64,000 nt of DNA, taken from a virus. A model generated the notes under the pieces. That model was given only the letters and a program-made list of their open reading frames with translations, did no database searches and was not told where the DNA came from. This document shows, in pieces, positions 9,989-60,850 of the stretch (the first letter of the stretch is position 1; every line of letters starts with the position of its first letter). The position numbers and the translations under genes were made by a program. Where the stretch lies: the IMG/VR virus record IMGVR_UViG_3300042502_001732, positions 79,933 to 143,932 of that record; one strand, 5' to 3'.

Positions 9989-10585
9989 GGCGTGAGGTTA
10001 GTTGTTTTGGGATTGCTTGTCAACAAGTTCTTTCGCGATTTCTTCTTTGAGGTCTTCCAGTAGATCAATGAAGTCAGAGAGTTCATCGTCCATAAGAAAC
10101 ATAGGAAGAATGCGGTCAATGATTGGTTCAGCAGGAAGCTCCCTTGTCAATTCGTAGTAACGCTTGAGTTTACAAGTATCGTGTGCGAACTCACCGATTT
10201 GTTTGATTGGTTGCATGGTTATTGTTCGATGAGGTTATTTTGTTTACAAAACTCGGCAATTACACCATTCATCTCCGTAAGAAAGTCGGAGATCATGAGT
10301 TCCTTGTCGAATGAGACTTCGTTGCCTTCGATGCAATATAAAAGGTCAACTTGGATTGTGGGTGGATTGATTGGTTGCATGGTGATTAGTCGTCAGCGTG
10401 GTGAGTTTCCATTAGTTCAGCAAGATAGCCGCGAATTTCATCAGCGGTTTCGCTTTCTCCTCCAGAGTATTCGTTAACAAGATCGAGAGCTTGATTGGCG
10501 ATTTCCTCAAGGGCTTCAATTGTGTTTAGTAGTTTTTCGATTGTGGTCATGTCAATAGTATAGTTTAGTTTCTTATTAGTGAAAG

Positions 10586-10686
10586 TGTGCTCCCCGCTAG
10601 GAGTCGAACCTAGGCTTCCAAGCTATCAGCAAAGCTATCCATGGTTTGCTTTGCTTTAGTGTTTGGTGTGCCAGCGCATCGGGGAG
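10586..10686 (-). ncRNA. tRNA-like ncRNA (acceptor stem + T-arm, no canonical D or anticodon arm), copy 1
   Basis: CTCCCCG/CGGGGAG stem; CTAGG-TTCGACT-CCTAG T-arm; motif A upstream; homologous to 60247-60409. Confidence 0.7.
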
Positions 10687-10713
10687 GTGAGCTTATTGTA
10701 AGTTAGTTTTTTA

Positions 10714-11196
10714 TTAGACGCTGGCAGGAATTTCTTCGTCCTCGTCGTATTCGACAAAGTTAAAGTTTTCTTTTGCAAACTCCGTGACATCAGCATCATC
10801 GACTTGGTTGTCGTCAATTTGACCTTCGGAGATGATAGCAGTCCCAGCAAACCAGCAACCGCTCTCAAAGTAGTCCAGCGTGAATTGATCGTTTGGAAAC
10901 ATTTCAGACAAAGCGGCAATGGCTTGAAGTGGTGGACTCCAAGCAGTCATAAAGGTTGCTTGAAAGTCTGCGATCTCGGAGATGAGTTGGTCAGCAACTT
11001 CACGCTGCTCTTCTTCGCTCAAGTCCCATTTGGTTCCCCAGTTTTCAAGTCTCCAATCATACCATCCATTGCCCTCAAGCAATTCGGGTGGCGTGGGTTT
11101 GATCTTCTCAAAAGAAAGACCATTTTCTTTTAGATAGCTTTCCAATTCTGGACTGCAATCCATGATCGACAATTTGTTTTCGCACCAGTTAGGCAT
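10714..11196 (-). CDS. DUF1281/YubB ferredoxin-like family protein
   Basis: MPNWCEN, WYDWRLENWGTKWD and TAWSPP motifs. Confidence 0.75.
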   Translation of the reverse strand: MPNWCENKLSIMDCSPELESYLKENGLSFEKIKPTPPELLEGNGWYDWRLENWGTKWDLSEEEQREVADQLISEIADFQATFMTAWSPPLQAIAALSEMFPNDQFTLDYFESGCWFAGTAIISEGQIDDNQVDDADVTEFAKENFNFVEYDEDEEIPASV

Positions 11197-19682: not shown

Positions 19683-19778
19683 AAATGTAATTTAGATGAG
19701 ATGATTGTATTTTAGTTTTTTATTAGAATTTTTTTATAAAAGATTATGAATCTATTCATAATATGGATAAATAATAAT

Positions 19779-20138
19779 ATGAAATGTTTAATTTGTGAGA
19801 AATCATTAGAGGGAAGACAGAAAAAATTTTGTAGTAGTAAATGTAAAAGTATGTTAGCTAATAATAAATTGCAAAATTATCAAGCACAGCAAACAAGGGG
19901 CAAGATAAGAAAAAAAAAGTTAATCGAAATGAAAGGAGGCTGTTGTGAAAAATGCGGTTATAATAAAAGTTTAGCAGCATTGTCTTTTCATCATTTGAAT
20001 CCAAATCTTAAAAAATTTCATTTAGATATTAGAAATCTTTCCAATAGGAAGTGGGAAATGATTATTGAAGAATTTAATGAATGTGAATTGTTGTGTTTTA
20101 ATTGTCATATGGAATTACATCATGGTTGCGAATGGTAG
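19779..20138 (+). CDS. Free-standing HNH endonuclease
   Basis: MKCLICE..KFCSSKC; CEKCGY..LSFHH..CELLCFNCHMELH; stop overlaps the tRNA 3' end. Confidence 0.85.
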   Translation: MKCLICEKSLEGRQKKFCSSKCKSMLANNKLQNYQAQQTRGKIRKKKLIEMKGGCCEKCGYNKSLAALSFHHLNPNLKKFHLDIRNLSNRKWEMIIEEFNECELLCFNCHMELHHGCEW

Positions 20139-20415
20139 GGGTGGAGGGATTCGAACCCCCACTCAATCGATTATGCTTACCACTATAGTTTTCACTACCC
20201 TTTCGGTTTGTGGTCTGGACTATCCCTTAATCTTCAGCATTACCTGTTAAGACTGAACTATTATAGTCTCTGCACGTCTCTCTTTCGAGATTTCGCTCAA
20301 GATTGGCATCAGCATTACCTGTTAAGCGTTCCTTGAATTTAAGTTCTGCTAACTTATTATTTCTAACAAGAAGACCCGTTAAAGTCGACTGCTTTGACCA
20401 TTAAGCTACACCCCT
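20133..20415 (-). tRNA. tRNA(CAU), probably Ile2, interrupted by a group I intron
   Basis: Exons 20383-20415 and 20133-20175 splice to AGGGGTG...GTCGA-CT-CAT-AA-TCGAT...CACCCCT-A-CCA. Confidence 0.9.
20176..20382 (-). mobile_element. 207-nt group I intron (IC3-like), no ORF
   Basis: Follows exon U33, ends in G; P1 GACU/GGUC with U-G wobble; AAATTC..GAA, GCAGAGACTA and GATAGTCCA core motifs. Confidence 0.88.
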
Positions 20416-21871: not shown

Positions 21872-21946
21872 TGGTAGGCCGTGATGGAATCGAACCATCG
21901 ACTAAAAATTAGAAATTTCTTGTTATATCCCCTTAACTAACGGCCC
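21872..21946 (-). tRNA. tRNA-Arg(UCU)
   Basis: Cloverleaf with AGAAA-TT-TCT-AA-TTTTT; CCA encoded. Confidence 0.9.
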
Positions 21947-47892: not shown

Positions 47893-48454
47893 ATCTTTCG
47901 TTTCTATTTTTCCAAATTTGTGCTGCCTTGTAGATTAATGCAGAGATGTTGCTTGATTCTTTATAACCAGAACTTTCTCCTCCGTCAAAATATCCATCAA
48001 GCGCAAATAAGAAATCTTCCATTTCATCTTCATCCAGATTGCGCACTGCTCCCATTGCCTTTTTAGCAAGTGGAAATTTAGCGGTGTAATATTCCTGTAG
48101 TGTCTCACCTTTATCTTCAACACCTTCATTATAACCATACTTTTCACCGGTCTTTAATCCGCTTGCTGCTCTTGCTGCGTCATAGAGGTGATCACTTATT
48201 TTTTTAATGACGCCTCTTGGATTGCCTTTGTGATCACGTGATGATGCATATTTTGTCATCTCGTCCATATGATCTGCAAATGCAAGTAAAAATTCTTGCA
48301 TTTGACTTCTATTTAAATTGTCAATTTCTGCTAATAGGCGTTTTATAATTGCGCTCTGTGCTTCTTGAAGACACCCGTCTGAGGTCTTGCCCTCCAGAAT
48401 CGTTGCTGCAGCACTCACAAGAGAGTCATTTTTATAGTTGTCAAAGGGTTGCAT
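47885..48454 (-). CDS. Leader-family protein with two helical repeat modules
   Basis: NDSLVSAAATIL...LQE; TATAAATA at 48462-48469. Confidence 0.75.
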   Translation of the reverse strand: MQPFDNYKNDSLVSAAATILEGKTSDGCLQEAQSAIIKRLLAEIDNLNRSQMQEFLLAFADHMDEMTKYASSRDHKGNPRGVIKKISDHLYDAARAASGLKTGEKYGYNEGVEDKGETLQEYYTAKFPLAKKAMGAVRNLDEDEMEDFLFALDGYFDGGESSGYKESSNISALIYKAAQIWKNRNERYA

Positions 48455-48508
48455 ATAAGACTATTTATACAATTTCATAATTCGAAAAATGTATAAATAA
48501 GATAGATT

Positions 48509-48967
48509 ATGAATAATTTCACATCATACAAAGAAGACCCATTGGTTTCTGCCGCTGCACATGTGTTGTCTCAAGAACAATTAAGCGAAGGCATTGTAAC
48601 CTTTCCGAGCTATCGTGCCAAAGGCAAAGGCATCTACATTGGAAAAGATCTCATAAGCAAAGACGATTTTGGTTCATTTGTCGATACTGTAAACAGACAA
48701 GTAGACAAGTTTCCACTCTTTGGAAAATATCTTGAAGTTCACTCTGGCTCTGACAGCATTCGCGGAGAGTGTGTTGGCTATGCTCATATTCATGGCGCGC
48801 CAATGCTGCTCATTCGCGACAGCAACTATAAAGAAGTATGGATTGATGCAGATCGTGCTCAACGTGAGATTTATGCATTTACTCCAGCTAAAAAGGATGT
48901 CACTACAACCGGCACCGGATCAAGTGATAATCCAATGCTTTACAGCTTTGGCAAGACTAACTATTAA
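48509..48967 (+). CDS. Leader-family protein
   Basis: EDPLVSAAAHVL...LSE; TATAAATA at 48492-48499. Confidence 0.75.
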   Translation: MNNFTSYKEDPLVSAAAHVLSQEQLSEGIVTFPSYRAKGKGIYIGKDLISKDDFGSFVDTVNRQVDKFPLFGKYLEVHSGSDSIRGECVGYAHIHGAPMLLIRDSNYKEVWIDADRAQREIYAFTPAKKDVTTTGTGSSDNPMLYSFGKTNY

Positions 48968-48969
48968 GT

Positions 48970-49053
48970 TGGTGGGCAAGGAGGGACTTGAACCCTCACG
49001 CATCACTGCACGGGCTTCTAAAACCCGCGTGGCTACCATTACACCACTTGCCC
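48970..49053 (-). tRNA. tRNA-Leu(UAG)
   Basis: CGGGT-TT-TAG-AA-GCCCG, long V-arm, CCA. Confidence 0.9.
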
Positions 49054-49057
49054 AAAT

Positions 49058-49094
49058 AAAAAACGGAGCCAACATAGAGAAGGCTCCGTTTTTG
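49058..49094. terminator. Bidirectional terminator
   Basis: AAAAACGGAGCC...GGCTCCGTTTTT. Confidence 0.8.
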
Positions 49095-49112
49095 TTTTAT
49101 ATTCTTATAATA

Positions 49113-49853
49113 TTAGAATGTCTTCTTAAACTCAATTCCACCGAAGAAAAGATTCTTCATGTCTGAATGCACACCAACCGAGTCATCAAGACCAAGTGAG
49201 TATGAGACAAACGGAACAGCGGTCACGCCTTGCACAACTGGAATGTCAGTCGACACAGTGGTCTCAAAGTGAGTACACTGTCCTTCTTGAGCGAGATAGC
49301 CAAGCTCAGCGCGAAAGTCAAGCATCAATGAAGATCCAAAATCATCACTGTATGTTGCAGCAAGTTCGCTATAGCTGTTATTGTCACCAACAAGTCCGAC
49401 ATACTGAGTAAGCGAAAGATCGATTGGACCAACTGCACGTGATACAGTCAAGCCAGCTTCTTGCGATTGTCCTTCCTGTCCTGCATAGTCTTGCGAATAC
49501 CAGGTATAGCTCAAAGATACGAGATAGTCAGCAACACTCTTAGAAAAGATTGCAGAGAGCTCAGTAGCTTCGTCCTTCCCAGTTGTTTCAGCGTTTGCAT
49601 AGTCAGCGCTAAGTGCCAACGAAACGTCCGCAGGAAGTTCAGTTGTCGTTTTGACGATTGCATTTGCTTCATTTGCACCTAGATCAGCACCACGCCAAAC
49701 CTTATCAGAAGAGTAGCCAGTTTCAAGCGTCACCGGCGTGAATGCTGAAGGAGCGTCTTCGATTGGGCCTGCATAGGCATAGTTAAGAGCAGCAAGTGCT
49801 GCAATAAGTCCGACTTTAACGATTTGTGTTTGTTTTTTCATATTATAGTTCAT
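49113..49853 (-). CDS. Outer-membrane beta-barrel protein, copy 2
   Basis: Signal peptide; ETGYSS..VWRGADLG; FFGGIEFKKTF; paralog of 1193-1930. Confidence 0.7.
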   Translation of the reverse strand: MNYNMKKQTQIVKVGLIAALAALNYAYAGPIEDAPSAFTPVTLETGYSSDKVWRGADLGANEANAIVKTTTELPADVSLALSADYANAETTGKDEATELSAIFSKSVADYLVSLSYTWYSQDYAGQEGQSQEAGLTVSRAVGPIDLSLTQYVGLVGDNNSYSELAATYSDDFGSSLMLDFRAELGYLAQEGQCTHFETTVSTDIPVVQGVTAVPFVSYSLGLDDSVGVHSDMKNLFFGGIEFKKTF

Positions 49854-49874
49854 TTTGTTTTTCAGGGGGAGAAG

Positions 49875-49949
49875 TGGTGGGGAGTGAGGGATTCAAACCC
49901 CCGGCCGACTCGGTGTAAACGAGATGCTCTATCGCTGAGCTAACTCCCC
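49875..49949 (-). tRNA. tRNA-Val(UAC)
   Basis: CTCG-TT-TAC-AC-CGAG; slightly atypical D- and T-loops. Confidence 0.85.
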
Positions 49950-49969
49950 ATAAAAGTATCTATATGTGT

Positions 49970-50059
49970 TGGCGGAACGTGTAGGATTTGAACCTACGGT
50001 AGAGTTGCCCCTACATTTCCTTAGCAGGGAAACACTTTCGACCACTCAGTCAACGTTCC
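49970..50059 (-). tRNA. tRNA-Ser(GCU)
   Basis: TTTCC-CT-GCT-AA-GGAAA, long V-arm, G73. Confidence 0.92.
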
Positions 50060-50063
50060 AAAA

Positions 50064-50154
50064 TGGCGGGTAGAGTAGGATTCGAACCCACGGAGGCGAT
50101 TAAACCTCTCTCGATTTCAAGTCGAGCGCCTTAGACCAACTCAGCCATCTACCC
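50064..50154 (-). tRNA. tRNA-Ser(UGA)
   Basis: CTCGA-CT-TGA-AA-TCGAG, long V-arm. Confidence 0.92.
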
Positions 50155-50160
50155 TAAAAT

Positions 50161-50958
50161 TTATAAGCCGTCAGACAGGTCATAGATGCGATTTGAAACA
50201 TCAACTGACTTGTCTTTCATGAGTGTTTTGGAAAGTGTGCTGTTGTATGACAGCAGCAGTGCAATTGCAAGTGGATCAAACACAGCAATGATTATGCATA
50301 TAAAGGCCATTACGATTGTATCGAGCGGCAGATTAAACTGATCGGCAATAAACTTAAACGTTCCAATGTCTTTTGATGCCGACATCTTGAGTTTTAGCTC
50401 TTGTATTTGTGTGTCAAGCTCTCTCTTGCTGTCTTGCAGTTGAACTATTCTCTCGCGCTGTGCTTGCATTTCAGCCGCTGTTCTTTCAATATCGGCATAG
50501 ATTGGTCGTGCATTTGCCGCAGACATCTTTGGCAAGCGTTCTTCTTGTGACCGCCGCGCAGCGTTTAGTGTCTCTATTCGTGAGTTGATTTGTGAGACTT
50601 CAGAGTCGATGCCGCTCTTACGTTCTTGAAGAGACCCAACCTGGGAGTCGATGTTAGAAAATTGTATTGAGTTTACAGCATAGGCAGACGATAGATAACC
50701 AAAAATACCGAGTGAAGTTATACACATGAGTACGAGTGTCGCAGTGACGAGATAGCCCTTTAAGAGCGCTGATGTGTATGCCCAATAGTGATGCAAATAG
50801 GTCGTCGCTACAAGTTTGCCAATCTCTAGTGCACTTGCCATGATGAGCACTGAAACATAGCTACCACTAAAGAGTGTAGCAATGCCAAGTACTGAAAACC
50901 ATGCGGCACATCCAGCCACAAGTAGACTAGTAATGAATAGCAGTGCACGTAAAACCAT
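50161..50958 (-). CDS. Membrane/coiled-coil phage protein
   Basis: Three N-terminal TMs (MASALEIGKLV), coiled coil, C-terminal TM with FDPLA. Confidence 0.75.
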   Translation of the reverse strand: MVLRALLFITSLLVAGCAAWFSVLGIATLFSGSYVSVLIMASALEIGKLVATTYLHHYWAYTSALLKGYLVTATLVLMCITSLGIFGYLSSAYAVNSIQFSNIDSQVGSLQERKSGIDSEVSQINSRIETLNAARRSQEERLPKMSAANARPIYADIERTAAEMQAQRERIVQLQDSKRELDTQIQELKLKMSASKDIGTFKFIADQFNLPLDTIVMAFICIIIAVFDPLAIALLLSYNSTLSKTLMKDKSVDVSNRIYDLSDGL

Positions 50959-50974
50959 GTCATGATATTTATAA

Positions 50975-50994
50975 TGGTGGGCCCGGTTGGGTTC
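50975..50994 (-). pseudogene. 3' remnant of a disrupted tRNA
   Basis: GAAC-CCAAC-CGGGCCC-A-CCA; acceptor strand pairs with the 5' half at 51636-51668. Confidence 0.75.
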
Positions 50995-51004
50995 TTATTA
51001 AAAA

Positions 51005-51080
51005 TGGTAGGCCCGCTCGGATTCGAACCGAGGGTCACCCGATTATGAGTCGGACGCTTTCACCGCTAAGCTACGAGCCT
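51005..51080 (-). tRNA. tRNA(CAU), probably Ile2
   Basis: TCCGA-CT-CAT-AA-TCGGG; AGGCTCG/CGGGCCT acceptor. Confidence 0.88.
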
Positions 51081-51090
51081 TTATAGAAAT

Positions 51091-51615
51091 TTAGTTCTTA
51101 GAAATATTTCGATTTTTTAAAGAATTTGAAATTTTTTGTTTTGTTTCTTCGCTCATCGGCTTTCTTAATTTTGCTGCTTTCGAAATATTTTGCTTTGCAG
51201 TTTCACTAAGTTTTCTACCTTTTGATGAAGAACCACCACGTTTTCCAGCATCAATAAATTTTTGTTTATTATCACTGGAATTTAAAGTTTTTTTAATTTG
51301 TGAAATAGTTTCATTTGAATGAGATTTGCCTTTAAAATGTGATCCACCTTCACCGCCGACTCCCATGTTATAAGTGTCCTTGCAATTTACAAATTCTTCA
51401 GTAATCAATTCTCTTTCTTTTGCATTCATCTCCTCTTCTGTTTGGAAAATAAACAATATTTCTTTTTGAAAATTTTCCTTACCATATTTTAATATAGCTT
51501 CCTTGATTGCCTTTCCGGAACCATAATACGAATCATTTGGATTAGCAGTTTGATGTTTACCTATATAAAATTTATTATTGATTAGATTTGTAGTTTTATA
51601 GATTGTATAGAACAT
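51091..51615 (-). CDS. GIY-YIG (Seg-like) homing endonuclease with NUMOD3-like repeats
   Basis: YTIYKTTNLINNKFYIGKH, YYGSG, HSNETI/LSETAK/MSEETK; start MFYTIY after TATAAATA at 51621. Confidence 0.88.
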   Translation of the reverse strand: MFYTIYKTTNLINNKFYIGKHQTANPNDSYYGSGKAIKEAILKYGKENFQKEILFIFQTEEEMNAKERELITEEFVNCKDTYNMGVGGEGGSHFKGKSHSNETISQIKKTLNSSDNKQKFIDAGKRGGSSSKGRKLSETAKQNISKAAKLRKPMSEETKQKISNSLKNRNISKN

Positions 51616-51635
51616 AATTCTATTTATACAATCAT

Positions 51636-51668
51636 AGACCCCTGCTCTTACCGCTGAGCTACAAGCCC
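51636..51668 (-). pseudogene. 5' half of a tRNA (positions 1-33)
   Basis: GGGCTTG-TA-GCTC-AGCGGTAA-GAGC-A-GGGGT-CT, then break. Confidence 0.85.
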
Positions 51669-51873
51669 CTTTCATTATAAAACTGGTCCGTTTTCTTTTT
51701 GTTCGTGATCTATGTATTGCCCAATATGTTGATGAACATTCAGCGATCGACGAAATGATTCATGCTCAAGTTTGGCTATTCGCTCTCTAAGTTCATTCAT
51801 CTCAGAGAGTAGCGCTTCTACTTCGGCGTCAATCAAACTTTTAATATGTTCTGTATTCATAATCTTTTAAAGA

Positions 51874-51958
51874 TGGTAGCTATGGTCGGACTCGAACCGA
51901 CAAGCCATAAGGCAACGAATTTTAAGTTCGCAATGTTTACCAATTTCATCACACAGCC
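51874..51958 (-). tRNA. tRNA-Leu(UAA)
   Basis: GCGAA-CT-TAA-AA-TTCGT, V-arm, CCA. Confidence 0.9.
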
Positions 51959-52047
51959 ATAGAAAATTTAGAGGTTGTCGACGAGATAATTGTTCGACTT
52001 TAGGGACCTCATGCTCCTGTAAGCGATACCACCACAGTACCGAAATT

Positions 52048-52680
52048 TTATTTATTAGAGATATTATAATTCTTACATGATTCTAAAGAATTTAGAATAA
52101 CAATATTGTCATATTGATTTAACAAACATTTTAATTTTTCATTTTGAACTTTAATTGCTTGGGGATTTTTTGGATCTAGATATAGATTATATTCTGGAAG
52201 ATAAAAATCTGGAAAATAATTATGTGTTATACCATCTTTATCAATCCATGGCAATGGACTTGGTCTAAGCCAAGTAATATTACATTCATCTAAACGTTTA
52301 GCGAGTTCTAATTCCCATGAAGAATCTAACATTATTCCATTATATTCAATAATTCCTCTTCTTAATCTTCTATGAGGTGAAGAAAGCGCCTTTTCTTTCA
52401 TCAATTGTTTAGATTTTTCAGTATGTTTTCTTCCTTTCCAATAGTTATTATTAATTAACGGCGAAACTATTTGCTTTCCCTCAGATTTTGCTTTATCATA
52501 TTGATTAGTAATTCCAGATTCTTTTTTCGCTAAATTCATAGCAGCAACAGCCTTTAATGAACCATTTTTATATTCAGTTCTTTTTGGGTTTTCTTTACAC
52601 CATCTACTATGGTTTGCCATCCATCCACTTGGTTTATCGCACAAATCAAATTCTTCTTTACAGTGTTTACATTTATTCAT
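52048..52680 (-). CDS. PD-(D/E)xK-type putative homing endonuclease
   Basis: N-terminal CKHC..H..WC; HTEKSK; DSSWE...YFPDFYLPEYNLYLDPK. Confidence 0.8.
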   Translation of the reverse strand: MNKCKHCKEEFDLCDKPSGWMANHSRWCKENPKRTEYKNGSLKAVAAMNLAKKESGITNQYDKAKSEGKQIVSPLINNNYWKGRKHTEKSKQLMKEKALSSPHRRLRRGIIEYNGIMLDSSWELELAKRLDECNITWLRPSPLPWIDKDGITHNYFPDFYLPEYNLYLDPKNPQAIKVQNEKLKCLLNQYDNIVILNSLESCKNYNISNK

Positions 52681-52696
52681 AATAGTGTTTTTAAAT

Positions 52697-52771
52697 TGGT
52701 GGGTATACTAGGATTCGAACCTAGGCGAAGGATTTAGAAGACCCTGATGCTATCCATTACATTATATACCC
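52697..52771 (-). tRNA. tRNA-Arg(UCU)
   Basis: AGGGT-CT-TCT-AA-ATCCT; D-loop GGATA. Confidence 0.88.
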
Positions 52772-52792
52772 ATACACTATTATTTATAAATT

Positions 52793-52827
52793 AAATCCCT
52801 TGCTCTAATCCACTGAGCTACGTTCCC
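52793..52827 (-). pseudogene. 5' half of an Arg-type tRNA truncated in the anticodon
   Basis: GGGAACG-TA-GCTC-AGTGGATTA-GAGC-A-AGGGA-TT-T, then TATAAATA at 52781-52788. Confidence 0.82.
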
Positions 52828-53513
52828 GTTTTTCATATTTAATTAAAGTCAAAGGTGTCTACTGTAATGTCATGTTGCTTAAGAAGACGAACCGCGTTGT
52901 CACGTTTACGTTTGCTGTTCCAGAAAAGCTCAATCTCTGCAGCATCGGCATCGTTATAGGTGTGAATGTCGCTTAACGCCATTGCTTCCATATAGCATTC
53001 ATCATTGTGAAATACAATCGAATATTGTTTTGTTTTCATGCGGTCTTAGTCGATGTCCTGTTTCATATTGTATTGGAGTTTCTCAAAAGATCAGACTTCA
53101 GCATTGACCTCACATTCATTTATAACATAATCATCATACGCAGTATTTTCATAACGATTGTTGACACGATCAGCATCAACCTTAGCCTTATAGGCATCTA
53201 GTGCGCAATTTGCTTTTTTAAGTGAGCTATAAGCTCCTAATACGACGTCGCCTTCATAGTCTACGCGTCCTAATAAGAGAAATATTGAAGATTTGTTTTT
53301 CATATTGTGGTTGGTGTTGCTTACATGGTTATTATAGCATAAAACGCACAGAAAGTACACAACTTTTTTCATAAAAGTGAAAAAAGATCCCGAAGTTAAG
53401 CCTGGTATAGAGAAAATTTGCCCATGACAGATTGCTGCTACACTCACCCAGGGCTGGGGCTATCTAGAAACCACATCTAGCTGCGTCATACTTTATCGCG
53501 TATGAATACGAAT

Positions 53514-53582
53514 TACGAGGGGGAGGAATTTAACCTCCACTCTAGACTATGGGCCTAGCGATCTCCGTATGATCCCTCTCGC
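53514..53582 (-). tRNA. Degenerate tRNA-like element with CAU loop
   Basis: CTAGG-CC-CAT-AG-TCTAG; GGAGG-TTAAATT-CCTCC; imperfect acceptor; no CCA. Confidence 0.45.
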
Positions 53583-53882
53583 AAAGTGTTTTCCCCACTA
53601 CCGAATAATTGACCAGAGTCAACTTGAAGAAACGCAGTGACTATTTCATCTTGGTGGCTAATTCCAAGACTAGTTTAATGTGCGTCGGATTACATTCGGC
53701 GTCACCGGGTTGCCATCCCGTTCTTAGCCTCAATGCTCATTGTAGGATCAATGCCTACAATGGCAGGGAAAAATGGTGGGGTATTCTCGTATCATGTTTA
53801 AACCATGCGCTGTCTAGTGTGCACCCATCAAGCGTAGAGGGCATGAGGAGAATAAAGCCGCTAAGCTCTGCCCCATTGAAAT

Positions 53883-53956
53883 TGGTGCGTCATGTGAGGG
53901 TCGAACTCACGCCTTCAGAGTGGAAGTCTAATGTGCTGCCGTAACACTTATGACGC
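53883..53956 (-). tRNA. tRNA-Gly(UCC)
   Basis: TTAGA-CT-TCC-AC-TCTGA. Confidence 0.88.
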
Positions 53957-53962
53957 AAAAAA

Positions 53963-54065
53963 TAGACAATGTAGATGGAATCGAACCATCGCCTCGGCGT
54001 TGTCGCCTATCCTATCGGACAAGAAACCCTTTGCTTGGGGCGTGCTACCACTACACTATACATTG
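53963..54065 (-). ncRNA. tRNA-like RNA with expanded anticodon/variable region
   Basis: Perfect CAATGTA/TACATTG acceptor, normal D- and T-arms, about 50-nt centre. Confidence 0.6.
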
Positions 54066-54071
54066 AAAGAC

Positions 54072-54497
54072 TTAACGTTTGATCAGGTCAGACACAGCAC
54101 GTGTCATTTTACCAATGTCAGCCATTGTTGGAAAGACACTGTTCGGGCTGTCGCCACCTCTAATTGAGAGGATTGGCTTGTGTGTGCCGGTTTTGGCGAG
54201 TGCCATATTGCCGCGAATATAGTCATCAGCACCCATCTTGCCCATGCTCATAGTGAGCGTATACTCTTGTCCACCAATCTCAAACGAGACACCAGTATAG
54301 CCAGAGTCGAAAAATTTGGCGTGTGTGATTGACCCACGGGGCGTGTCGGCAGAATTTAAAATTGTTTGCAGATAATCTTGAACGCTTTCTGGAACAGACC
54401 GTCCAAAGCCAGTGACTGGTGCAATAGCGACCTTTTCGAGAATTTGCTTTGCAGCTTCAACTAGACTGTCTGGTTGTGTAGAATTAAATGCGTTCAT
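54072..54497 (-). CDS. Leader-family protein
   Basis: QPDSLVEAAKQILE; TATAAATA at 54503-54510. Confidence 0.7.
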   Translation of the reverse strand: MNAFNSTQPDSLVEAAKQILEKVAIAPVTGFGRSVPESVQDYLQTILNSADTPRGSITHAKFFDSGYTGVSFEIGGQEYTLTMSMGKMGADDYIRGNMALAKTGTHKPILSIRGGDSPNSVFPTMADIGKMTRAVSDLIKR

Positions 54498-54514
54498 ACT
54501 ACTATTTATAAAAA

Positions 54515-54600
54515 TGGTGGGCAGAGCTGGATTCGAACCAGCGTAGGCGTTAGCCAGCAGATTTACAGTCTGCCCCCTTTAGCCACTCGGGCATCTACCC
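54515..54600 (-). tRNA. tRNA-Tyr(GUA)
   Basis: GCAGA-CT-GTA-AA-TCTGC, V-arm. Confidence 0.92.
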
Positions 54601-54708
54601 ATTTAGCAATGTATGGTTATTGACCCACACGGAATCTAGTATTTTATATACTAAGTTAAAACTGTTTTTGTATCTCTATTCTTTACCCCTTAAAAGGCAA
54701 AAATATAT

Positions 54709-55077
54709 CTACCAAATAGAACCAGGTTTAGAGTTGGGTCTATTTTTATCCCAAAAATGCTTACCAGCAGCAGTTTGATCTGAGCTACGATATATTTTAT
54801 AACCACGTTTCGATAAAATATCATAAACCATTTTTGCTAGTCCCTTACCTCTGTGCTCTTTAGATACCCAAATATCTATAGCTTTTAAATTTTTATTATC
54901 GTGTTTAAATGTAAATGTACCGATTTTTATTCTATCATCAATAAGATATACATATATCTCATCCAAGTAACTATCGATATCTATTTTAATATCATGGGTT
55001 ATTTTTTTACTAAAAATTGATTTGAGTTTATCAATAAAACTTTCTCGTATAAAATACTGTTTAAATGATATAATCAT
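54709..55077 (-). CDS. GNAT-family acetyltransferase with SFKQY leader
   Basis: VSKEHRGKGLA acetyl-CoA loop; QTAAGKHFW; MIISFKQYFIRE. Confidence 0.7.
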   Translation of the reverse strand: MIISFKQYFIRESFIDKLKSIFSKKITHDIKIDIDSYLDEIYVYLIDDRIKIGTFTFKHDNKNLKAIDIWVSKEHRGKGLAKMVYDILSKRGYKIYRSSDQTAAGKHFWDKNRPNSKPGSIW

Positions 55078-55236
55078 AATACTATTTATGCGAAAGTGAT
55101 GAGCTTTTATTCTTGTGCCATGCTCAGGGCTTAACAGGTGTTGTTGCTACATCAAAGGAGTTATGCTTGTTTAGCGTTCTAAAGTCACATCCTATGAAAC
55201 GCAATTGCCGCTATGCGAACCGCCCATTAAAAAAAT

Positions 55237-55316
55237 TGGTTGCGGGGGTGGGAGTCGAACCCACACCGAAGCCTAGCTTATGAGACTAGTTCAGCACCAC
55301 TACTGACTGCCCCGCG
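55237..55316 (-). tRNA. tRNA-Met(CAU), initiator-like
   Basis: C1-A72 mismatch (CGCGGGG/CCCCGCA); CTAGT-CT-CAT-AA-GCTAG. Confidence 0.8.
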
Positions 55317-55328
55317 ATTGAAAATTGA

Positions 55329-55439
55329 GCCGTCTAGAGAGGCGACATAGACACATTCCCGTACGCACCCGCATATGCAGTCCTGCACGTCATTTGTGTC
55401 TATGTACCGGGCATGGAGCCCGTGCACCTCTCTAGCGGC
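55329..55439 (-). ncRNA. Structured ncRNA of about 110 nt between tRNAs
   Basis: Stems GCCG.CTAGAGAGG/CCTCTCTAG.CGGC, ACATAGACACA/TGTGTCTATGT, CGGGC/GCCCG. Confidence 0.6.
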
Positions 55440-55444
55440 AAAGT

Positions 55445-55519
55445 TGGTAGAGGTACAAGGATTCGAACCTCGACAAACAGAATCAAAATCTGTGGTGCTA
55501 ACCGTTACACTATACCTCT
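55445..55519 (-). tRNA. tRNA-Gln(UUG)
   Basis: ACAGA-TT-TTG-AT-TCTGT. Confidence 0.9.
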
Positions 55520-55520
55520 A

Positions 55521-55594
55521 TGGCACGTCACCACAGATTCGAACTGTGACAAAAGGTTTTGGAGACCTTTGTGCTACCGTTACACCAATGACGT
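55521..55594 (-). tRNA. tRNA-Trp(CCA)
   Basis: AAGGT-CT-CCA-AA-ACCTT. Confidence 0.9.
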
Positions 55595-55598
55595 ATAA

Positions 55599-55674
<76 letters not shown>

Positions 55675-55684
55675 TAATAAAAAA

Positions 55685-55759
55685 TGGTCGGGTAATTGAG
55701 AATCGAACTCAACTAAACTTGCTCCCAAAGCAAGCGCCTCGCCAGTCGGCCTTTACCCG
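55685..55759 (-). tRNA. tRNA-Pro(UGG)
   Basis: CTTGC-TT-TGG-GA-GCAAG. Confidence 0.88.
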
Positions 55760-55767
55760 TAAAAATA

Positions 55768-55845
55768 TGGTACACCCAGTTAGACTCGAACTAACGACCC
55801 CACAATTATCAATCGTGTGCTCTAACCAAACTGAGCTATGGATGC
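55768..55845 (-). tRNA. tRNA-Ile(GAU)
   Basis: CACGA-TT-GAT-AA-TTGTG. Confidence 0.9.
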
Positions 55846-55854
55846 ACTTTAAAC

Positions 55855-55941
55855 TGGAGCCGAAAGTGGGATTCGAACCCACGATGATGTTTCCAAACCG
55901 GATTACAAATCCGGTGCAATCGACCACTATGCGACTTCGGC
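55855..55941 (-). tRNA. tRNA-Thr(UGU) with 15-nt variable region
   Basis: CCGGA-TT-TGT-AA-TCCGG; V = TTTGGAAACATCATC. Confidence 0.85.
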
Positions 55942-56631
55942 GTGATTGTATAAATCAATAAATTTTTTAAAAAGATTGCTATTGTATGCTATACCAACAG
56001 AATTAAATGCTCTACTTAAACATTTATGTTTTTCATATTCTAATTTTAGATTATCAAAGTTGTCTTTAATGATATTTGGTTTCGAATTATTCTCACATTG
56101 TTTGCAACAATATTTTTTCTTTTTCTTATTTGAAAATGTTGAATTGCAAGCTGCGCATGTAAAATGTTTTTGTTTCTTTTTTACAGTTCTTCCAAATTTC
56201 CATTCTTCGGAAACAATATAATCTTTAGAAACTTTCAAATTAACAATACCATTTGTTATCCATTTTGTATCATACTGACTATTGCATTCTCCCTTTGAAG
56301 TAATTTTAAATCGATGAGATGCATATTTAATAAATTCTTTACGTGCCCATTCATACATACGACCACTTTTAATGCATGGTCGATCACACGTTTTTGAAGA
56401 TTTCATTTGCATTGCCCAAAGAGCATATGCAGTTTGGCTGCATCGATTAAATTTTGAAAGAAGCAAATGCGCAATATAATGTTCACGACCAGATAGTGCT
56501 ACAATGTTTGATTCATCATCAGTGCCTCCCAATGATTTTGGGACTATATGATGACGTTCAATATAGCCACACGTTAAGATATTTTGACGCCTATATTCTA
56601 TTAGGCGATTATATATCTGTTTGTAATCCAT
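55927..56631 (-). CDS. HNH (Mob-like) homing endonuclease
   Basis: ERHHIVPKSLGGTDDESNIV.L..REHYIAH; TKWITNG; TATAAATA at 56637-56644; stop lies inside tRNA-Thr. Confidence 0.88.
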   Translation of the reverse strand: MDYKQIYNRLIEYRRQNILTCGYIERHHIVPKSLGGTDDESNIVALSGREHYIAHLLLSKFNRCSQTAYALWAMQMKSSKTCDRPCIKSGRMYEWARKEFIKYASHRFKITSKGECNSQYDTKWITNGIVNLKVSKDYIVSEEWKFGRTVKKKQKHFTCAACNSTFSNKKKKKYCCKQCENNSKPNIIKDNFDNLKLEYEKHKCLSRAFNSVGIAYNSNLFKKFIDLYNHAEVA

Positions 56632-56683
56632 AAGTTTATTTATACAAAACGAACATTTAACTTACAAATTACAATAAAAAAAT

Positions 56684-56758
56684 TGGCTCCGACTCGTGGG
56701 ATCGAACCACGGACCCGATGATTAACAGTCATCTGCTCTGCCGCTGAGCTAAGTCGGA
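56684..56758 (-). tRNA. tRNA-Asn(GUU)
   Basis: GATGA-CT-GTT-AA-TCATC. Confidence 0.92.
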
Positions 56759-57384
56759 TTGTGAAATTATTTATAGTGAGGAATTTTAGAGACAAACTCC
56801 TCAAAATTTTCCGTATCAATGTCTATATATTCTTCATTGAGAGTAAGACGACCCCTGTGCCAGGCATTCCATTCTAGATCTTCTTGCAGCGTCTCTGATG
56901 TATGAATCTTTACTAGACTGTTTTCTCCAGAAATGTCGCATGCAGACAAGGCGTCTTCGTACTGTTCATGCCAATCAAGACCACCGCATTCAGAATCTTC
57001 GCTCACGAGTTCAACGAGTTCTTCGTCAGAGAGACCTGCATATTCATCATAGAGTTCTCTCAACTTTTCAGTGTCAACGCTAAATAACTTTCCAGTGTGT
57101 ACAGTTTCAGTCGTCCATTTTTCGATGTATATTTTCATAGTATTATTCGTCAAGTGAATTTAACCAACGCTTCTCACGTACGCGTTGGGCATGAGTAGAC
57201 CACATGCGACCTAGCGTGAATCCTAGAGCATGCATTTCAAAATAGTTTTGAAAGCGTGAATGATCGCGAGTGACTCTAAACTTGTGTTCACCGCTCTTAA
57301 GCGGTAGTTTTACTGAAAGGTAAAATTGACCGACCTTGATGTATGTTGAGGTGCGAATGACTATTTTCATTGTATATTATTTAT

Positions 57385-57459
57385 TGGTACTCACACGGGG
57401 AATCGAACCCCGATTGTACGGATGAAAACCGTAAGTCCTAACCGTTAGACGATATGAGC
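57385..57459 (-). tRNA. tRNA-Glu(UUC)
   Basis: TACGG-TT-TTC-AT-CCGTA. Confidence 0.9.
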
Positions 57460-57471
57460 AGGTGTTGTAGA

Positions 57472-57545
57472 TGGACGCACGTTCCAGTAACGCTCTGGAC
57501 TAGGCGGTTTTGCAGACCACTGCATAACTTCTCTGCCAACGTGCG
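57472..57545 (-). tRNA. tRNA-Cys(GCA), atypical T-loop
   Basis: GTGGT-CT-GCA-AA-ACCGC; U73; T-loop AGCGTTA. Confidence 0.8.
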
Positions 57546-57549
57546 AAAG

Positions 57550-57645
57550 TGGTACTAGAGGTGGGACTCGAACCCACATACGGCTCGATGACCGATTCTA
57601 CCCCCTTATAAAGAAGGACCTTTAACCAATTCAGGACACTCTAGC
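57550..57645 (-). tRNA. tRNA(UAU), Ile anticodon, with 23-nt variable arm
   Basis: GCTAGAG/CTCTAGT-A-CCA; CCTTC-TT-TAT-AA-GGGGG; V = TAGAATCGGTCATCGAGCCGTAT. Confidence 0.8.
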
Positions 57646-58341
57646 ATTAAAAATTTGTTCTTGAATTTTATCCCATGTAAGCATTGTTTTATCGAGAATT
57701 AAAACTCGTATTGAATGGGTCTGTTCAACAATTTTAATTTTTTCGCAATCACTAAACCCCATAGATGGATTAATGTTATTGATAAGAAAATCATTTTTAG
57801 GATCTAGATATACATCAAAATCTGGCAGATAAAAATCTGGTGTATATTGTCTACTTTTATTGAATGGATCGATATAATCGAATTTTTTTGGCTTTATCCA
57901 TCTTATGGAATTACTATCTAAAGATTTTGCAACACATACTTCATAAGAAGAACCAAATTTATGTCCATTATATTCGCATTTAGTATTAACAAATTTACCA
58001 CCAAGACCACGACGTTTAGCATGATCTGACATATTTTTTCTTAATTCTGAAGTGCTCCTAGCTTTAGCTGATGCAGACATCTTTTGTCGCGTTTCATTAG
58101 AAACTTCCACTGCAATTGGTTTTGGCAAATTTAATTTAATTGCTTTAGTATACTGATTTGTTCCATTTCCTTTGCGGGCATTCATAGATTCCATCCAACG
58201 AATAGTTTTACCATTTGGTAGTTTTTCACTTGGAGGTAATTTATCTTTTATTTTTCCATTTTCACATGCCCTTGCATGTCTAGAATAGGCAAATTTTGAA
58301 ATTTCTCTATTACATACTGGGCACAAGGAATGGTCATTCAT
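57631..58341 (-). CDS. PD-(D/E)xK-type putative homing endonuclease
   Basis: CPVC..H..AC; SNETRQKMS; GSSYE...YTPDFYLPDFDVYLDPK; TATAAATA at 58347-58354; stop lies inside the tRNA. Confidence 0.8.
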   Translation of the reverse strand: MNDHSLCPVCNREISKFAYSRHARACENGKIKDKLPPSEKLPNGKTIRWMESMNARKGNGTNQYTKAIKLNLPKPIAVEVSNETRQKMSASAKARSTSELRKNMSDHAKRRGLGGKFVNTKCEYNGHKFGSSYEVCVAKSLDSNSIRWIKPKKFDYIDPFNKSRQYTPDFYLPDFDVYLDPKNDFLINNINPSMGFSDCEKIKIVEQTHSIRVLILDKTMLTWDKIQEQIFNARVS

Positions 58342-58363
58342 ATAGTTATTTATAAAAATGAGC

Positions 58364-58396
58364 AAAGAATCCGCTCTACCACTGAGCTACAGGAGG
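58364..58396 (-). pseudogene. 5' half of a tRNA truncated in the anticodon
   Basis: CCTCCTG-TA-GCTC-AGTGGTA-GAGC-G-GATTC-TT-T. Confidence 0.82.
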
Positions 58397-58674
58397 GAAA
58401 AATTTATCGGTTAATCATATTGGCATGTCGATGAGGAGCGCAATGCGCTGCAACTACAATCGACTATGACTTTTTATAGGGACCGAAAACTCCTATATAC
58501 AAACCTTTGACATCGCATCACTGAGTGATCCAAGCCGTACAACCACGGACGTTCTCAACTTTCAGTAGCAGTTGATGTGGCATTTAGTTATGAAACTTTT
58601 GTTTCTTGTTGCTTACAGAGACATTATACACTAAACTCTCTCATATGTAAACATCTTTTTTATCTATAAGTGAT

Positions 58675-59271
58675 TTATTTATATTGTAAAAAATCCTTCC
58701 ATTCATCGCGAATCGTAACTTTTTCACTAAGCGCGCTAAACTCGATGTCTTTTAGCATCTTAGGTTTTACCTCTGAGCCATGAATGTTGAAATATGGAAA
58801 CTTGTTTGATTTTTTGGTATTGCACTTTTTGCAAGACAGAACGATATTGTCGTCGTTGTTGCCGCCTCCACGACTGCGAGGAATGAGATGATCACGAGTC
58901 GCAGAAGTGTATGGAATTTTCTTTAAGCAATATTGACATTCTCCTCCATAGATATAATACAGCTGACGAAGGTTGATTGCGCGCGGCTGCTTTTTGCCTT
59001 GCTTGTAGTGACCAAAATAGCCTGGCACCACTACAATTGTAGGAATTGCCCACAATGTGTCGACGCTTCTCAGCGCAGGATTGTTTGGACTGAGATGATC
59101 ATCGTTTGCTATCCAGCTGCTCCAGTCTCGTATGTTTCCATACTGGTCATAGGCTTTTACGCCTCCAACCATCATGTTTCGAATTGCAGACCGAGCAGAA
59201 AAAAATCCACATGGTTGAAAGCCTGCAGTCAATACGAGTGTAGTCTTATGAGAGGGAAAAACTGGAATCAT
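58675..59271 (-). CDS. HNH endonuclease (McrA-like)
   Basis: TLVLTAGFQP; CQYC..TRDHLIPRSRGG..NIVLSCKKCNTKK. Confidence 0.85.
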   Translation of the reverse strand: MIPVFPSHKTTLVLTAGFQPCGFFSARSAIRNMMVGGVKAYDQYGNIRDWSSWIANDDHLSPNNPALRSVDTLWAIPTIVVVPGYFGHYKQGKKQPRAINLRQLYYIYGGECQYCLKKIPYTSATRDHLIPRSRGGGNNDDNIVLSCKKCNTKKSNKFPYFNIHGSEVKPKMLKDIEFSALSEKVTIRDEWKDFLQYK

Positions 59272-60246
59272 GAACAGACGAGAGTATAACCACCAAACTT
59301 AGAGCGCACGACGTTGTTTACATAGACTGCAATGTGTGATGCATCTTCTAAACGAATTCTAGTGTGGCTGCGAAAGATTGAGCGACGACTAGAAATAGAA
59401 TATTTGTGACGATTTGGATTATTTTTTCCAAGGCGGCCATAGAGGTCAACTCGTTTAAATTTTCCAACATAGTCTGGAGACTCCATCTCTTTCAAACGCT
59501 CTCTCAAATTATGAGTTTTTACCTCACGCCTCAAATGAAAGATTATTGTTTTTCCAACCTCGTTATTTTCAACCTTTAGTATTGTTCGTTGTGTGTTCAT
59601 ATTAGTTAAAGAAAAGATAGACTGCTTTGAACAGAGCGCTGATGAATCCAATCATACAGACTCCAAAAAATAGTGATATCAAGATGGCTAGTGGATAAAA
59701 ATGCGATAGTTTCATGGTTTGGTGTTTGTTGTTTAAAAGTATCCTCAGTGCTTTACAGCTTCAATTGGGGCTGAGGAGCCTCCCAGGTTTCTATCACCTC
59801 CGAATTGAACGGACTTTTGAATAATATTCTTATAGGCCACTACCAGGTCATGACTACTGGCTTTGCGATAGAGAAGGTTTTAAAATCTTATGTCGTTATT
59901 CTATTTGTATTTGTTGTTGTTTTTTTTGGAAATGGCACCGCAGGCTATGGAATTGCACCATGAAACTTTTTAACGCTCTCCCTGCGGACAAGAGGCTCGT
60001 TCCTTTTATCTCTGATTTCGTTTGCAACCTCCATCAGTAAATTTGTTTTTTGAAAATTTCCCGTGCCTAACTTTTGTTGCTGATGAAACACGGGCATGTT
60101 CGGTTTCCTTACTATTGCTGAGCAATCCTGGGGTCTTCCTATCATCAGAAACGGCTGTGTGAGTCCATCTGCACATTTAATTTTCTTATCTTCTCGAGCT
60201 GCAGTCTCTTACGATTGGGGCATTACCTTAAATTTGTTTTTGAAAG

Positions 60247-60409
60247 TGGTGTCCCCCGCGAGGAGTCGAACCTCGTCTCCCAGAGTTCATTCTAGATCAT
60301 TGACTAAGCTATTCATGTTTCGGTGGCGTTAACTCCAACCGGTCACATGCCCGGGATTCACTTAGTGTTTGTTCTAGAAGATCTACTGGCGGGCCAATAC
60401 TTCAGGGGA
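60247..60409 (-). ncRNA. tRNA-like ncRNA, copy 2
   Basis: TCCCCTG/CGGGGGA-CACCA; CGAGG-TTCGACT-CCTCG; long central hairpin. Confidence 0.75.
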
Positions 60410-60850
60410 AAATTGTTTTTTGAAAGTGGTGAGCAGTTTTAAGAGATGCTCAACTCTCTAGAGCGGTTTAACGAGTGCCCGAAGCTCAAAGCTTTTTAAA
60501 AGATGTTCAACTCTTGTGATTACCAACTACCGTTCATGGTTTGGATAAAGATGACGAACCAAACTGCTGCATTGATTCCGATGAAAATTCCTAATGTTTC
60601 TTTCATATTGTGTTGTGTTGCTTACATGGTCATTATACACTAAAATGCAGAGAAAGTACACAACTTTTTTCAAAAAAGTGAAAAAAGGCCCCGAAGTTAG
60701 GCCCCGTATAGAGAAATCTAGTGCTCCCAAGGTCTAAAAATGTCAAATTTACGACTTTTTATGCAAAAAATACCCACCAAAGTGTGCATCGTTGAGAGGC
60801 ATGGTGGGTCTGCTCGAGAGTTATATTTGACAAAAATCAAAAGAGTTTAT

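Follow-up and report, generated by a model that had tools for sequence, protein, structure and literature searches.

Three cassettes inside broken tRNA genes

A stretch of 64,000 nucleotides (nt) of viral DNA, hereafter the window, was analysed; it forms the last 64 kb of a 143,932-base IMG/VR virus record (IMGVR_UViG_3300042502_001732) estimated to be 69% complete. At 48-60 kb its minus strand carries a cluster of 20 tRNA genes (called with ARAGORN), which is broken up by islands of low GC content (0.22-0.32 versus 0.42-0.50) with one small gene per island. In this cluster, three tRNA genes are broken at or next to the anticodon, and each is followed by a cassette containing a homing endonuclease gene (HEG) and an intact tRNA gene with the same anticodon. 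A T4-type late promoter box, TATAAATA, present in 16 copies in the window versus 5.8 expected (15 of the 16 on the coding strand), lies directly upstream of each cassette; the three HEGs lie outside any intron or intein and are free-standing, with expression signals of their own. The comparison set consisted of related IMG/VR contigs, which carry L and G labels (L013 is a stretch of G002, and L010 a stretch of G001). No cultured-phage relative was found by megablast of the region or by tblastn of a 700-amino-acid (aa) structural protein against cultured phages, and the phage group is known from metagenomes only. The parts of the cassettes, all on the minus strand, are as follows.

50975..50994, minus: last 20 nt (from T-loop to CCA) of the resident tRNA(CAU) that was broken; the match to positions 57-76 of its intact counterpart at L010 5887-5962 is 20/20
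51005..51080, minus: replacement tRNA(CAU) of cassette 1, intact (ARAGORN; Rfam tRNA 69.3 bits)
51091..51615, minus: HEG1, free-standing GIY-YIG/NUMOD3 homing endonuclease, 174 aa (Pfam, PHROG, low GC)
51621..51628, minus: TATAAATA late-promoter-like box of cassette 1
51636..51668, minus: orphan 5′ half of the resident tRNA(CAU), ending at U33; 33/33 identical to L010 5930-5962
52048..52680, minus: HEG2, endonuclease with a zinc finger and a PD-(D/E)xK-like domain, 210 aa (phrog_15137, conserved core, structural matches)
52697..52771, minus: replacement tRNA-Arg(TCT) of cassette 2, intact, with an altered D-arm (ARAGORN; Rfam 60 bits)
52781..52788, minus: TATAAATA box of cassette 2, upstream of the tRNA and the nuclease
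52793..52827, minus: orphan 5′ half of the resident tRNA-Arg(TCT), ending at T34; 35/35 identical to the intact 77-nt genes of L243 and L210
57550..57645, minus: replacement tRNA(UAU) of cassette 3, a 96-nt gene whose variable arm is long (ARAGORN; Rfam 40.8 bits)
57631..58341, minus: HEG3, a 236-aa paralogue of HEG2 with a reading frame that extends 15 nt into the tRNA(UAU) (phrog_15137, E 3.3e-16)
58347..58354, minus: TATAAATA box of cassette 3
58364..58396, minus: orphan 5′ half of the resident canonical tRNA-Ile(TAT), ending at T34; 33/33 identical to the intact 75-nt gene at L013 9474-9548 (the same as L011 6414-6488)

Each half is the 5′ part of a canonical tRNA, comprising the acceptor strand, the D arm and the 5′ strand of the anticodon stem. 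A previous reading of this DNA from its letters alone (the sequence-only reading) had described three orphan halves that stop at position 33/34, each with a promoter within about 10 nt. Both points were borne out, the ends being U33, T34 and T34 (T34 is the first anticodon base) and the TATAAATA box beginning 5-10 nt past the break in all three cassettes. In a BLAST comparison with 1,273 tRNAs from all phage loci fetched, the halves were recovered as orphan fragments (half 1, 33/33, E 1.6e-11; half 3, 33/33, E 1.6e-11; half 2, 22/22, E 6e-5). The order proposed then, half, promoter, nuclease and tRNA, is correct for cassettes 1 and 3 and wrong for cassette 2. Past the box, cassette 1 continues with HEG1, the tRNA(CAU), 10 nt and the 20-nt 3′ stub of the broken gene, cassette 2 with tRNA-Arg(TCT) and then HEG2, and cassette 3 with HEG3 overlapping the 96-nt tRNA(UAU) by 15 nt. 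The cassettes measure 639, 742 and 814 nt and hold one nuclease and one tRNA each; the three tRNAs (69, 60 and 41 bits) all score above the threshold of the Rfam tRNA model, 29 bits. Everything 3′ of position 33/34 of the resident genes has been replaced, save the 20-nt stub in cassette 1. Halves and replacement tRNAs are 50-71% identical; the replacement tRNA(CAU) is 71% and the replacement tRNA-Arg 68% identical to the resident type. The tRNAs with a CAU anticodon may be Met or Ile2. The cassettes are not tRNA-targeting elements of the integrase type, as they lack an integrase and leave behind a 5′ half.

The sequence-only reading had proposed a search for empty alleles with an intact tRNA, and these were found at all three loci, with the same flanks. 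An exact-pattern scan of IMG/VR with half 1 identified, in L009 and L010 (5887-5962), an intact 76-nt tRNA(CAT) whose first 33 and last 20 nt are the two remnants seen in the window. A scan of the same kind found canonical tRNA-Ile(TAT) genes whose first 33 nt are half 3 in L011 and L013 (75 nt) and in L012 (73 nt); at the L013 locus, the spacer upstream and the tRNA-Cys and tRNA-Glu that follow are also those of the window. An anchor scan recovered the intact 77-nt tRNA-Arg(TCT) genes that match half 2 in L243 and L210; here the downstream spacer is the same and the upstream flank is identical to that of the window at 69/73 positions in L243 and 64/73 in L210. The backbone of the window is 92-99% identical to L013, against which BLAST resolved the three cassettes as clean, simple indels. 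HEG1 is missing from L013 and L010, HEG2 from L013, L243 and L210, and HEG3 from L013, while a copy of HEG3 that is 99% identical is present in L015; the HEGs are thus polymorphic for presence or absence at single sites among close relatives. The intact genes carry the anticodons CAT, TCT and TAT, those of the cassette tRNAs, as expected if the replacement fits the broken half. Intact relatives with other anticodons had been named beforehand as evidence that would speak against such a fit; since the anticodon is shared at all three sites, none of this kind was encountered. A derivation of the third half from a tRNA-Lys, a gene that the window lacks, was also considered and was ruled out by the intact TAT gene.

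Because relatives carry the unbroken genes, the insertions are proven, and elements of this type can invade RNA genes without a self-splicing intron. In its historical part, insertion into resident tRNA genes, the sequence-only reading holds. We consider it likely that three free-standing HEG cassettes, each combining a late promoter with a nuclease and a tightly linked tRNA, entered the phage's own genes for the same isoacceptors at or next to the anticodon.

Half-genes beside complete genes might also stem from local tandem duplication and decay of tRNA genes, with nucleases inserted later between the copies. Phage tRNA clusters do hold duplicates and fragments that are not near nucleases: of the 70 orphan 5′ fragments counted over all loci, 44 lack a promoter box 3-16 nt past position 34, although several of these are intron exons or missed tRNAs. 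The other 26 have a TATAAATA-like box at that distance and count in favour of the cassettes. The level of identity between halves and replacements, however, indicates that they are not recent duplicates; furthermore, the relatives have one intact gene at the site, and break and cassette edge fall on exactly the same nucleotide. Duplication is thus an exceedingly improbable origin for these arrangements.

Allelic states among related phages

The state of each locus was read among closely related contigs, using two conserved spacers as anchors. In the following list, 'replacement tRNA alone' means that neither scar nor nuclease is present.

Arg locus: intact in L243, L210 and G001 (89% identity); scar plus cassette in the window; replacement tRNA alone in L013, L206, L231 and L204
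Ile(TAT) locus: intact in L013 and five more distant contigs; scar plus cassette in the window and L198; replacement tRNA alone in L195 and L204, and in L196 with an extra tRNA in front
Ile(TAT) locus, other state: in the G001 group, the order is long-arm tRNA, shortened scar, nuclease
CAU locus: intact in G001; scar plus cassette in the window; intron-bearing in L013, L206, L210, L231 and L204

At the CAU locus, the replacement tRNA alone was not seen among the related contigs compared. Single genomes combine these states in different ways. L243 and L198 are one contig, with an intact Arg locus and the Ile cassette; G002 has the replacement type at the Arg locus, an intron at the CAU locus and an intact Ile locus; and L204 has the replacement type at both the Arg and Ile loci. 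The three loci therefore assort independently among near-identical phages, which fits recent, separate gains and losses. The states also fit the usual cycle of a homing element, namely invasion, loss of the nuclease, and a co-converted allele that remains.

The CAU locus has a further state. In L013 (15447-15739), about 205 nt interrupt the resident tRNA(CAU) after U33 and match the Rfam group I intron model from end to end (42.3 bits, E 1.2e-9 in a small search, under the family threshold of 50). A group I intron occupies this same U33|C34 junction of the same gene in five close relatives. The window itself has an intron-bearing tRNA(CAU) outside the cluster, accompanied by a nuclease gene:

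20133-20413, minus: tRNA(CAU) with a 207-nt group I intron after U33, the intron being devoid of an open reading frame (ORF)
19746-20138, plus: HNH gene convergent to the intron-bearing tRNA(CAU), ending on its CCA

This tRNA gene was not called by ARAGORN, or by Rfam at E ≤ 0.01. Its intron is about 94% identical to that of the cluster tRNA(CAU) in G002/L013. The L013 gene has the anticodon stem of the 20-kb copy but is of the resident type in its acceptor, D and T arms, a mosaic that is characteristic of intron homing with co-conversion of the exons. Intron and anticodon stem of the 20-kb copy recur in the cluster tRNA(CAU) of five relatives. The anticodon stem of the first scar in the window is of the intron-less type; the same junction has thus been used either by an intron or by the GIY-YIG cassette. 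The sequence-only reading had regarded the cassettes as a DNA-level alternative to an intron, and the introns at this junction in five close relatives lend that view direct support.

Since group I introns occupy the same anticodon-loop position in this phage group, the cassettes might be suspected to be decayed intron-encoded endonucleases, the halves being 5′ exons, the ribozyme and the 3′ exon having been lost, and the adjacent tRNAs being unrelated neighbours. However, HEG1, HEG2 and HEG3 do not lie inside a self-splicing intron with both exons, and no Rfam intron was found in 48000-60500 at E ≤ 1. Each cassette has its own promoter 5-10 nt past the break, cassettes 2 and 3 have no 3′ exon, and the stub of cassette 1 is short by 23 nt. 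In addition, the introns observed contain no ORF and are about 205 nt long. Together, these features make a decayed intron very improbable.

A second intron was noted in G001, where an HNH gene lies directly upstream of a tRNA-Leu(UAA) with a group I intron after U34 (L010 6252-6935; Rfam 60.2 bits). The layout is of the collaborative-homing type; the tRNA-Leu(UAA) of the window has no intron. A candidate tRNA-Leu 5′ scar upstream of this HNH gene (about 6950-6975) was too short and gapped to count.

The nucleases and their linked tRNAs

The nucleases had been described beforehand as one GIY-YIG and two PD-(D/E)xK enzymes, which agrees with the present assignments, a recognised homing-endonuclease fold being found for all three. 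Their genes are of low GC content (for HEG1, 0.27-0.32 versus 0.42-0.50 for the backbone). HEG1 matched Pfam NUMOD3 (33.1 bits), SegE_GIY-YIG (26.2 bits; cut-off, 25) and phrog_314 (E 1.8e-44); its score with the generic GIY-YIG model, 18.5 bits, was below the cut-off of 22.6. Four of the five PHROG families that it matches are annotated as homing endonucleases, one of these with a GIY-YIG motif. By these profile matches, HEG1 is predicted to be a Seg-like enzyme with an N-terminal GIY-YIG module. HEG2 and HEG3 are paralogues (27% identical) that share a zinc finger and an E...PD...DxK core. Across 38 aligned homologues, the residues that do not vary are, as positioned in HEG2, the C4 C7 H24 C28 finger, E123, D158 of the PD motif and D169-P-K171. 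An AlphaFold model of HEG2 built on this alignment (mean pLDDT, the predicted confidence score, 89.8) had a C-terminal domain (109-210) that matched TnsA (Z 7.8), Bax1 (7.5), the I-Bth0305I core (7.3), Vsr (7.1), Hjc (4.8) and I-Ssp6803I (4.2). A Foldseek search of the model against the PDB returned nothing at E ≤ 0.001, the weak rows being of the same PD-(D/E)xK kind, and phmmer against PDB sequences gave only insignificant matches to T7 endonuclease I. HEG2 and HEG3 can thus be placed in the PD-(D/E)xK superfamily with moderate confidence, the Z values, all below 8, being too low for a subfamily to be named.

Relatives of these nucleases are linked to tRNA genes family-wide, across unrelated contigs. 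The tRNAs that abut the closest homologues of each nuclease are 87% (cassette 1), 80-81% (cassette 2) and 98, 91 and 82% (cassette 3) identical to the cassette tRNA. The closest relatives of HEG1 (66-69% identity) end 10-15 nt inside a tRNA(CAU), the one that is 87% identical to the replacement in the window; other members of the family adjoin tRNA-Gly, Cys, Asp or Ala, two of them with a 5′ scar of the same isoacceptor upstream. For HEG2, 44 of 73 relatives lie 13-166 nt downstream of a tRNA-Arg(TCT), and 24 of 31 distinct Arg loci show a tRNA-like 5′ scar, a TATAAATA-like box and an intact tRNA. These scars typically end inside the anticodon. In 19 of the 24 scar loci, the D-arm class of the scar is not that of the carried tRNA, and the broken gene may be of either class. 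In 8 of 9 rows of one clade of the nuclease tree, that of the window among them, one D-arm class is carried and the canonical one destroyed, while in a second clade the destroyed and carried classes are mostly swapped. The labels for allele destroyed and carried change 12 times on this tree versus 18.7 times in shuffles, none of 200 shuffles giving a value as low. A second tRNA-Arg(TCT), of a third D-arm class, is present in the window outside the cluster (21872-21946, minus strand) with no nuclease nearby, so that Arg(UCU) decoding is redundant in this phage.

Relatives of HEG3 were found in tRNA clusters in 21 of 24 cases. The closest ones flank a long-arm tRNA(UAU), and more distant ones overlap tRNA-Thr(TGT); three cases in the family show a Thr scar cut after G35, followed by the nuclease and a tRNA-Thr. 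The long-arm tRNAs form a class of their own in these phage contigs, with 20 distinct sequences of 90-96 nt that have an invariant UAU anticodon loop, A73, a long variable arm, and covarying anticodon and T stems (for example, window 57550-57645, L010 13970-14063, L019 2326-2418 and L144 3129-3220). Such a type II architecture is unusual for an AUA reader.

T4/T6 SegB is a free-standing GIY-YIG homing endonuclease encoded in a tRNA gene cluster (PMC2330249; PMC13096335). By analogy with it, the cassettes might reflect ordinary intronless homing, with intergenic nucleases, tRNAs co-converted as flanking DNA, half-genes left accidentally by illegitimate repair, and no selected pairing between nuclease and tRNA. 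SegB does drive the inheritance of surrounding tRNA genes without a dedicated partner (PMC2330249), replacement-type tRNAs exist without nucleases, and a 66-aa gene upstream of the L013 tRNA-Arg is 74% identical versus 95-97% for the flanks, as in a co-conversion tract. The pairing is, however, specific, and it is conserved from one unrelated contig to another: Arg(TCT) accompanies HEG2, tRNA(CAU) the close relatives of HEG1, and either tRNA-Thr or a long-arm tRNA(UAU) the relatives of HEG3. Besides, nuclease and tRNA are 13-30 nt apart or overlap, and the scars are of the same isoacceptor throughout, with ends typically inside the anticodon. Hitch-hiking of this sort is therefore an unlikely explanation.

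A probable fourth cassette, lacking a scar, lies in the same cluster:

55855..56631, minus: HNH nuclease HEG4 (55927-56631), overlapping an 87-nt long-arm tRNA-Thr(TGT) (55855-55941)

HEG4 matches phrog_655 (E 2.1e-35) and is of low GC content. Its site in G001 and L196 has a canonical 75-nt tRNA-Thr and no nuclease; in L013, HEG4 is mostly deleted. The last 100 nt or so of HEG4 recur in L013 at the end of a compound insertion in a tRNA-Asn gene (9968-11100, in G002) that is intact in the window. This insertion consists, in this order, of an Asn 5′ scar of 25 nt, a different tRNA-Asn, an HNH gene, a canonical tRNA-Thr that breaks off in the T loop, a 108-aa gene and an Asn-like 3′ stub, followed by the HEG4 remnant.

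Proposed homing route, known systems and other features of the cluster

Returning to the cassettes as mobile units that carry a spare tRNA, we infer a cut near the anticodon, immunity of the carried allele and a repair route of the following kind. During co-infection, the nuclease would break both strands of a cassette-free allele near the anticodon; HEG1 would perhaps cut in the T loop, the place of the right junction and of SegB binding (PMC2330249). Repair would copy the cassette from the donor, leaving the recipient's 5′ half up to position 33/34 as a dead scar and deleting the rest of the old gene, while decoding would be kept up by the cassette-borne tRNA. The carried allele is proposed to be a poor substrate for the nuclease because its stems differ from those of the resident gene (50-71% identity). 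The scar and the sequence beyond the tRNA could then act as homology arms for more homing. The nuclease may later be lost, the swapped tRNA allele staying in place.

Several observations weigh against this interpretation. Neither junction of cassette 1 is homologous to the target, and an illegitimate step therefore has to be assumed for the first insertion. The T-psi-C motif recognised by SegB (PMC2330249), the relative of HEG1 that has been characterised, is kept in both the resident and the cassette alleles; T4 is protected from SegB by low expression, not by immunity (PMC2330249). Replacement-type tRNAs are found without nuclease or scar (L013 14990-15064; L195 and L204) and are therefore not cassette cargo only; they could be ordinary alleles beside which nucleases landed. 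In G001, the long-arm tRNA lies upstream of the shortened scar and the nuclease, an order that the simple model does not predict. The clustering of labels on the nuclease tree derives partly from relatedness, and every relative is a metagenome assembly.

A wider and rather doubtful extension is that isoacceptor-specialised nuclease lineages act as gene drives that cycle rewired tRNA alleles (long-arm tRNA(UAU) and tRNA-Thr, altered D-arms), as part of a general, intron-free strategy of homing by replacing the target. Rewired tRNAs might then be favoured by escape from the nuclease, at the DNA level, and from host anticodon nucleases, at the RNA level, and the long-arm UAU tRNA would possibly have a changed charging identity.

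A layout with a half, a nuclease and a tRNA of the same anticodon was not found described in the literature searched. To our knowledge, homing endonucleases are thought to enter essential genes only if an intron or intein hides them, and to sit between genes otherwise; the three nucleases of the window, which represent two folds, instead reside in RNA genes, each supplying a spare gene. Of the systems known, T4 SegB comes nearest to the cassettes, with collaborative homing and I-Ssp6803I as mechanistic neighbours. I-Ssp6803I (PDB 2OST) is a PD-(D/E)xK homing endonuclease encoded in the group I intron of the Synechocystis tRNA-fMet. It resembles the cassette enzymes in its restriction-endonuclease-like fold and in its target, the anticodon loop of a tRNA(CAU), but it is intron-encoded, has no zinc finger or replacement tRNA, and matches the HEG2 model weakly (the Z of 4.2 given above).

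Like the cassettes, SegB is a free-standing nuclease in a phage tRNA cluster that spreads with adjacent tRNA genes in co-infection, and it shares the GIY-YIG plus NUMOD3 build of HEG1. The segB reading frame ends at the start of tRNA-Arg, and tRNA processing has been proposed to damp expression of the nuclease (PMC2330249); the overlap between nuclease stop codon and tRNA 5′ end in the cassettes repeats this arrangement. SegB also cuts within tRNA genes, as proposed for the cassette nucleases. In contrast, it does so at the 3′ ends of many tRNAs, via the generic T-psi-C motif, whereas the cassette nuclease lineages are tied to one isoacceptor each. Neither a broken target half nor a same-anticodon replacement has been described for SegB, while the cassettes have scars that end at the anticodon, and two of their three enzymes are PD-(D/E)xK-like.

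In collaborative (trans) homing, a free-standing endonuclease lies beside an ORF-less group I intron in its target, as with T4 mobE/I-TevIII (PMC2790892). There too, the donor is protected by an altered target, and nuclease and protecting sequence form one unit; the target, however, is rescued by RNA splicing, whereas the cassettes abandon it and a second complete gene replaces its function. Cyanophage psbA and Aeh1 nrdA are further cases of collaborative homing. The same phage group has this arrangement at tRNA(CAU) (window 19746-20413) and at the tRNA-Leu of L010 6252-6935. In fractured genes, a free-standing endonuclease gene divides a protein gene in two, and split inteins restore its function (PMC2677866). 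They resemble the cassettes in having a HEG inside a host gene whose function is rescued without an intron, but both of their halves are joined by protein trans-splicing, while the cassettes leave the gene dead and supply a spare.

At three loci of one phage group, one thus finds an intact target, a fresh scarred insertion, a swapped allele after loss of the nuclease, and a competing group I intron at the same nucleotide. A single cluster of the window combines three cassettes, with nucleases of two folds, and the comparison with relatives yields an exact empty allele for each of them, independent assortment of the loci and an intron at the junction of cassette 1. An intron-free homing route and the recognition code of tRNA-gene-specific nucleases are now directly testable, as is the idea that the turnover of phage tRNAs and their odd architectures are driven by selfish nucleases. 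For annotation, orphan half-tRNAs beside TATAAATA boxes mark such cassettes.

Other features of the cluster were also noted. A 100-nt tRNA-like gene at 53966-54065 (minus strand; Rfam tRNA 43 bits; 92% conserved in G001), missed by ARAGORN, can be folded into a structure that has an acceptor arm, D and T arms, an 'anticodon' loop of 8 nt and, in its variable region, two additional hairpins. The region 53380-53880 is GC-rich, 87% conserved in G002 and mostly without a minus-strand ORF (a 111-aa plus-strand ORF overlaps it); inside it, 53514-53582 gives a weak tRNA-like match of 28.6 bits, just below the threshold. An element of about 100 nt at 53315-53415 has at least seven copies in the genome (78-90% identity), the others including those at G000:C1 105765, 107748, 110244, 114955, 119680 and 140533, and is probably a promoter-bearing unit boundary. 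At 54709-55077 (minus strand), a gene for a 122-aa GNAT-like acetyltransferase, with a GC content of 0.22-0.31 and a near-consensus late box, is missing from the 95% identical L013 and behaves like a mobile cassette without a nuclease. Relatives encode a transfer-messenger RNA between two tRNA-Ser genes (L010 4448-4756; L014, about 11667-12043 in L012 numbering), where the window has only 4 nt, and G002 has a tRNA-Lys and a tRNA-His between Ala and Trp, both of which the window lacks. Just past the tRNA cluster, L013 (7061-7097) and L010 (16003-16039) contain an Rfam abiF RNA motif that scores above threshold (47.1 bits).

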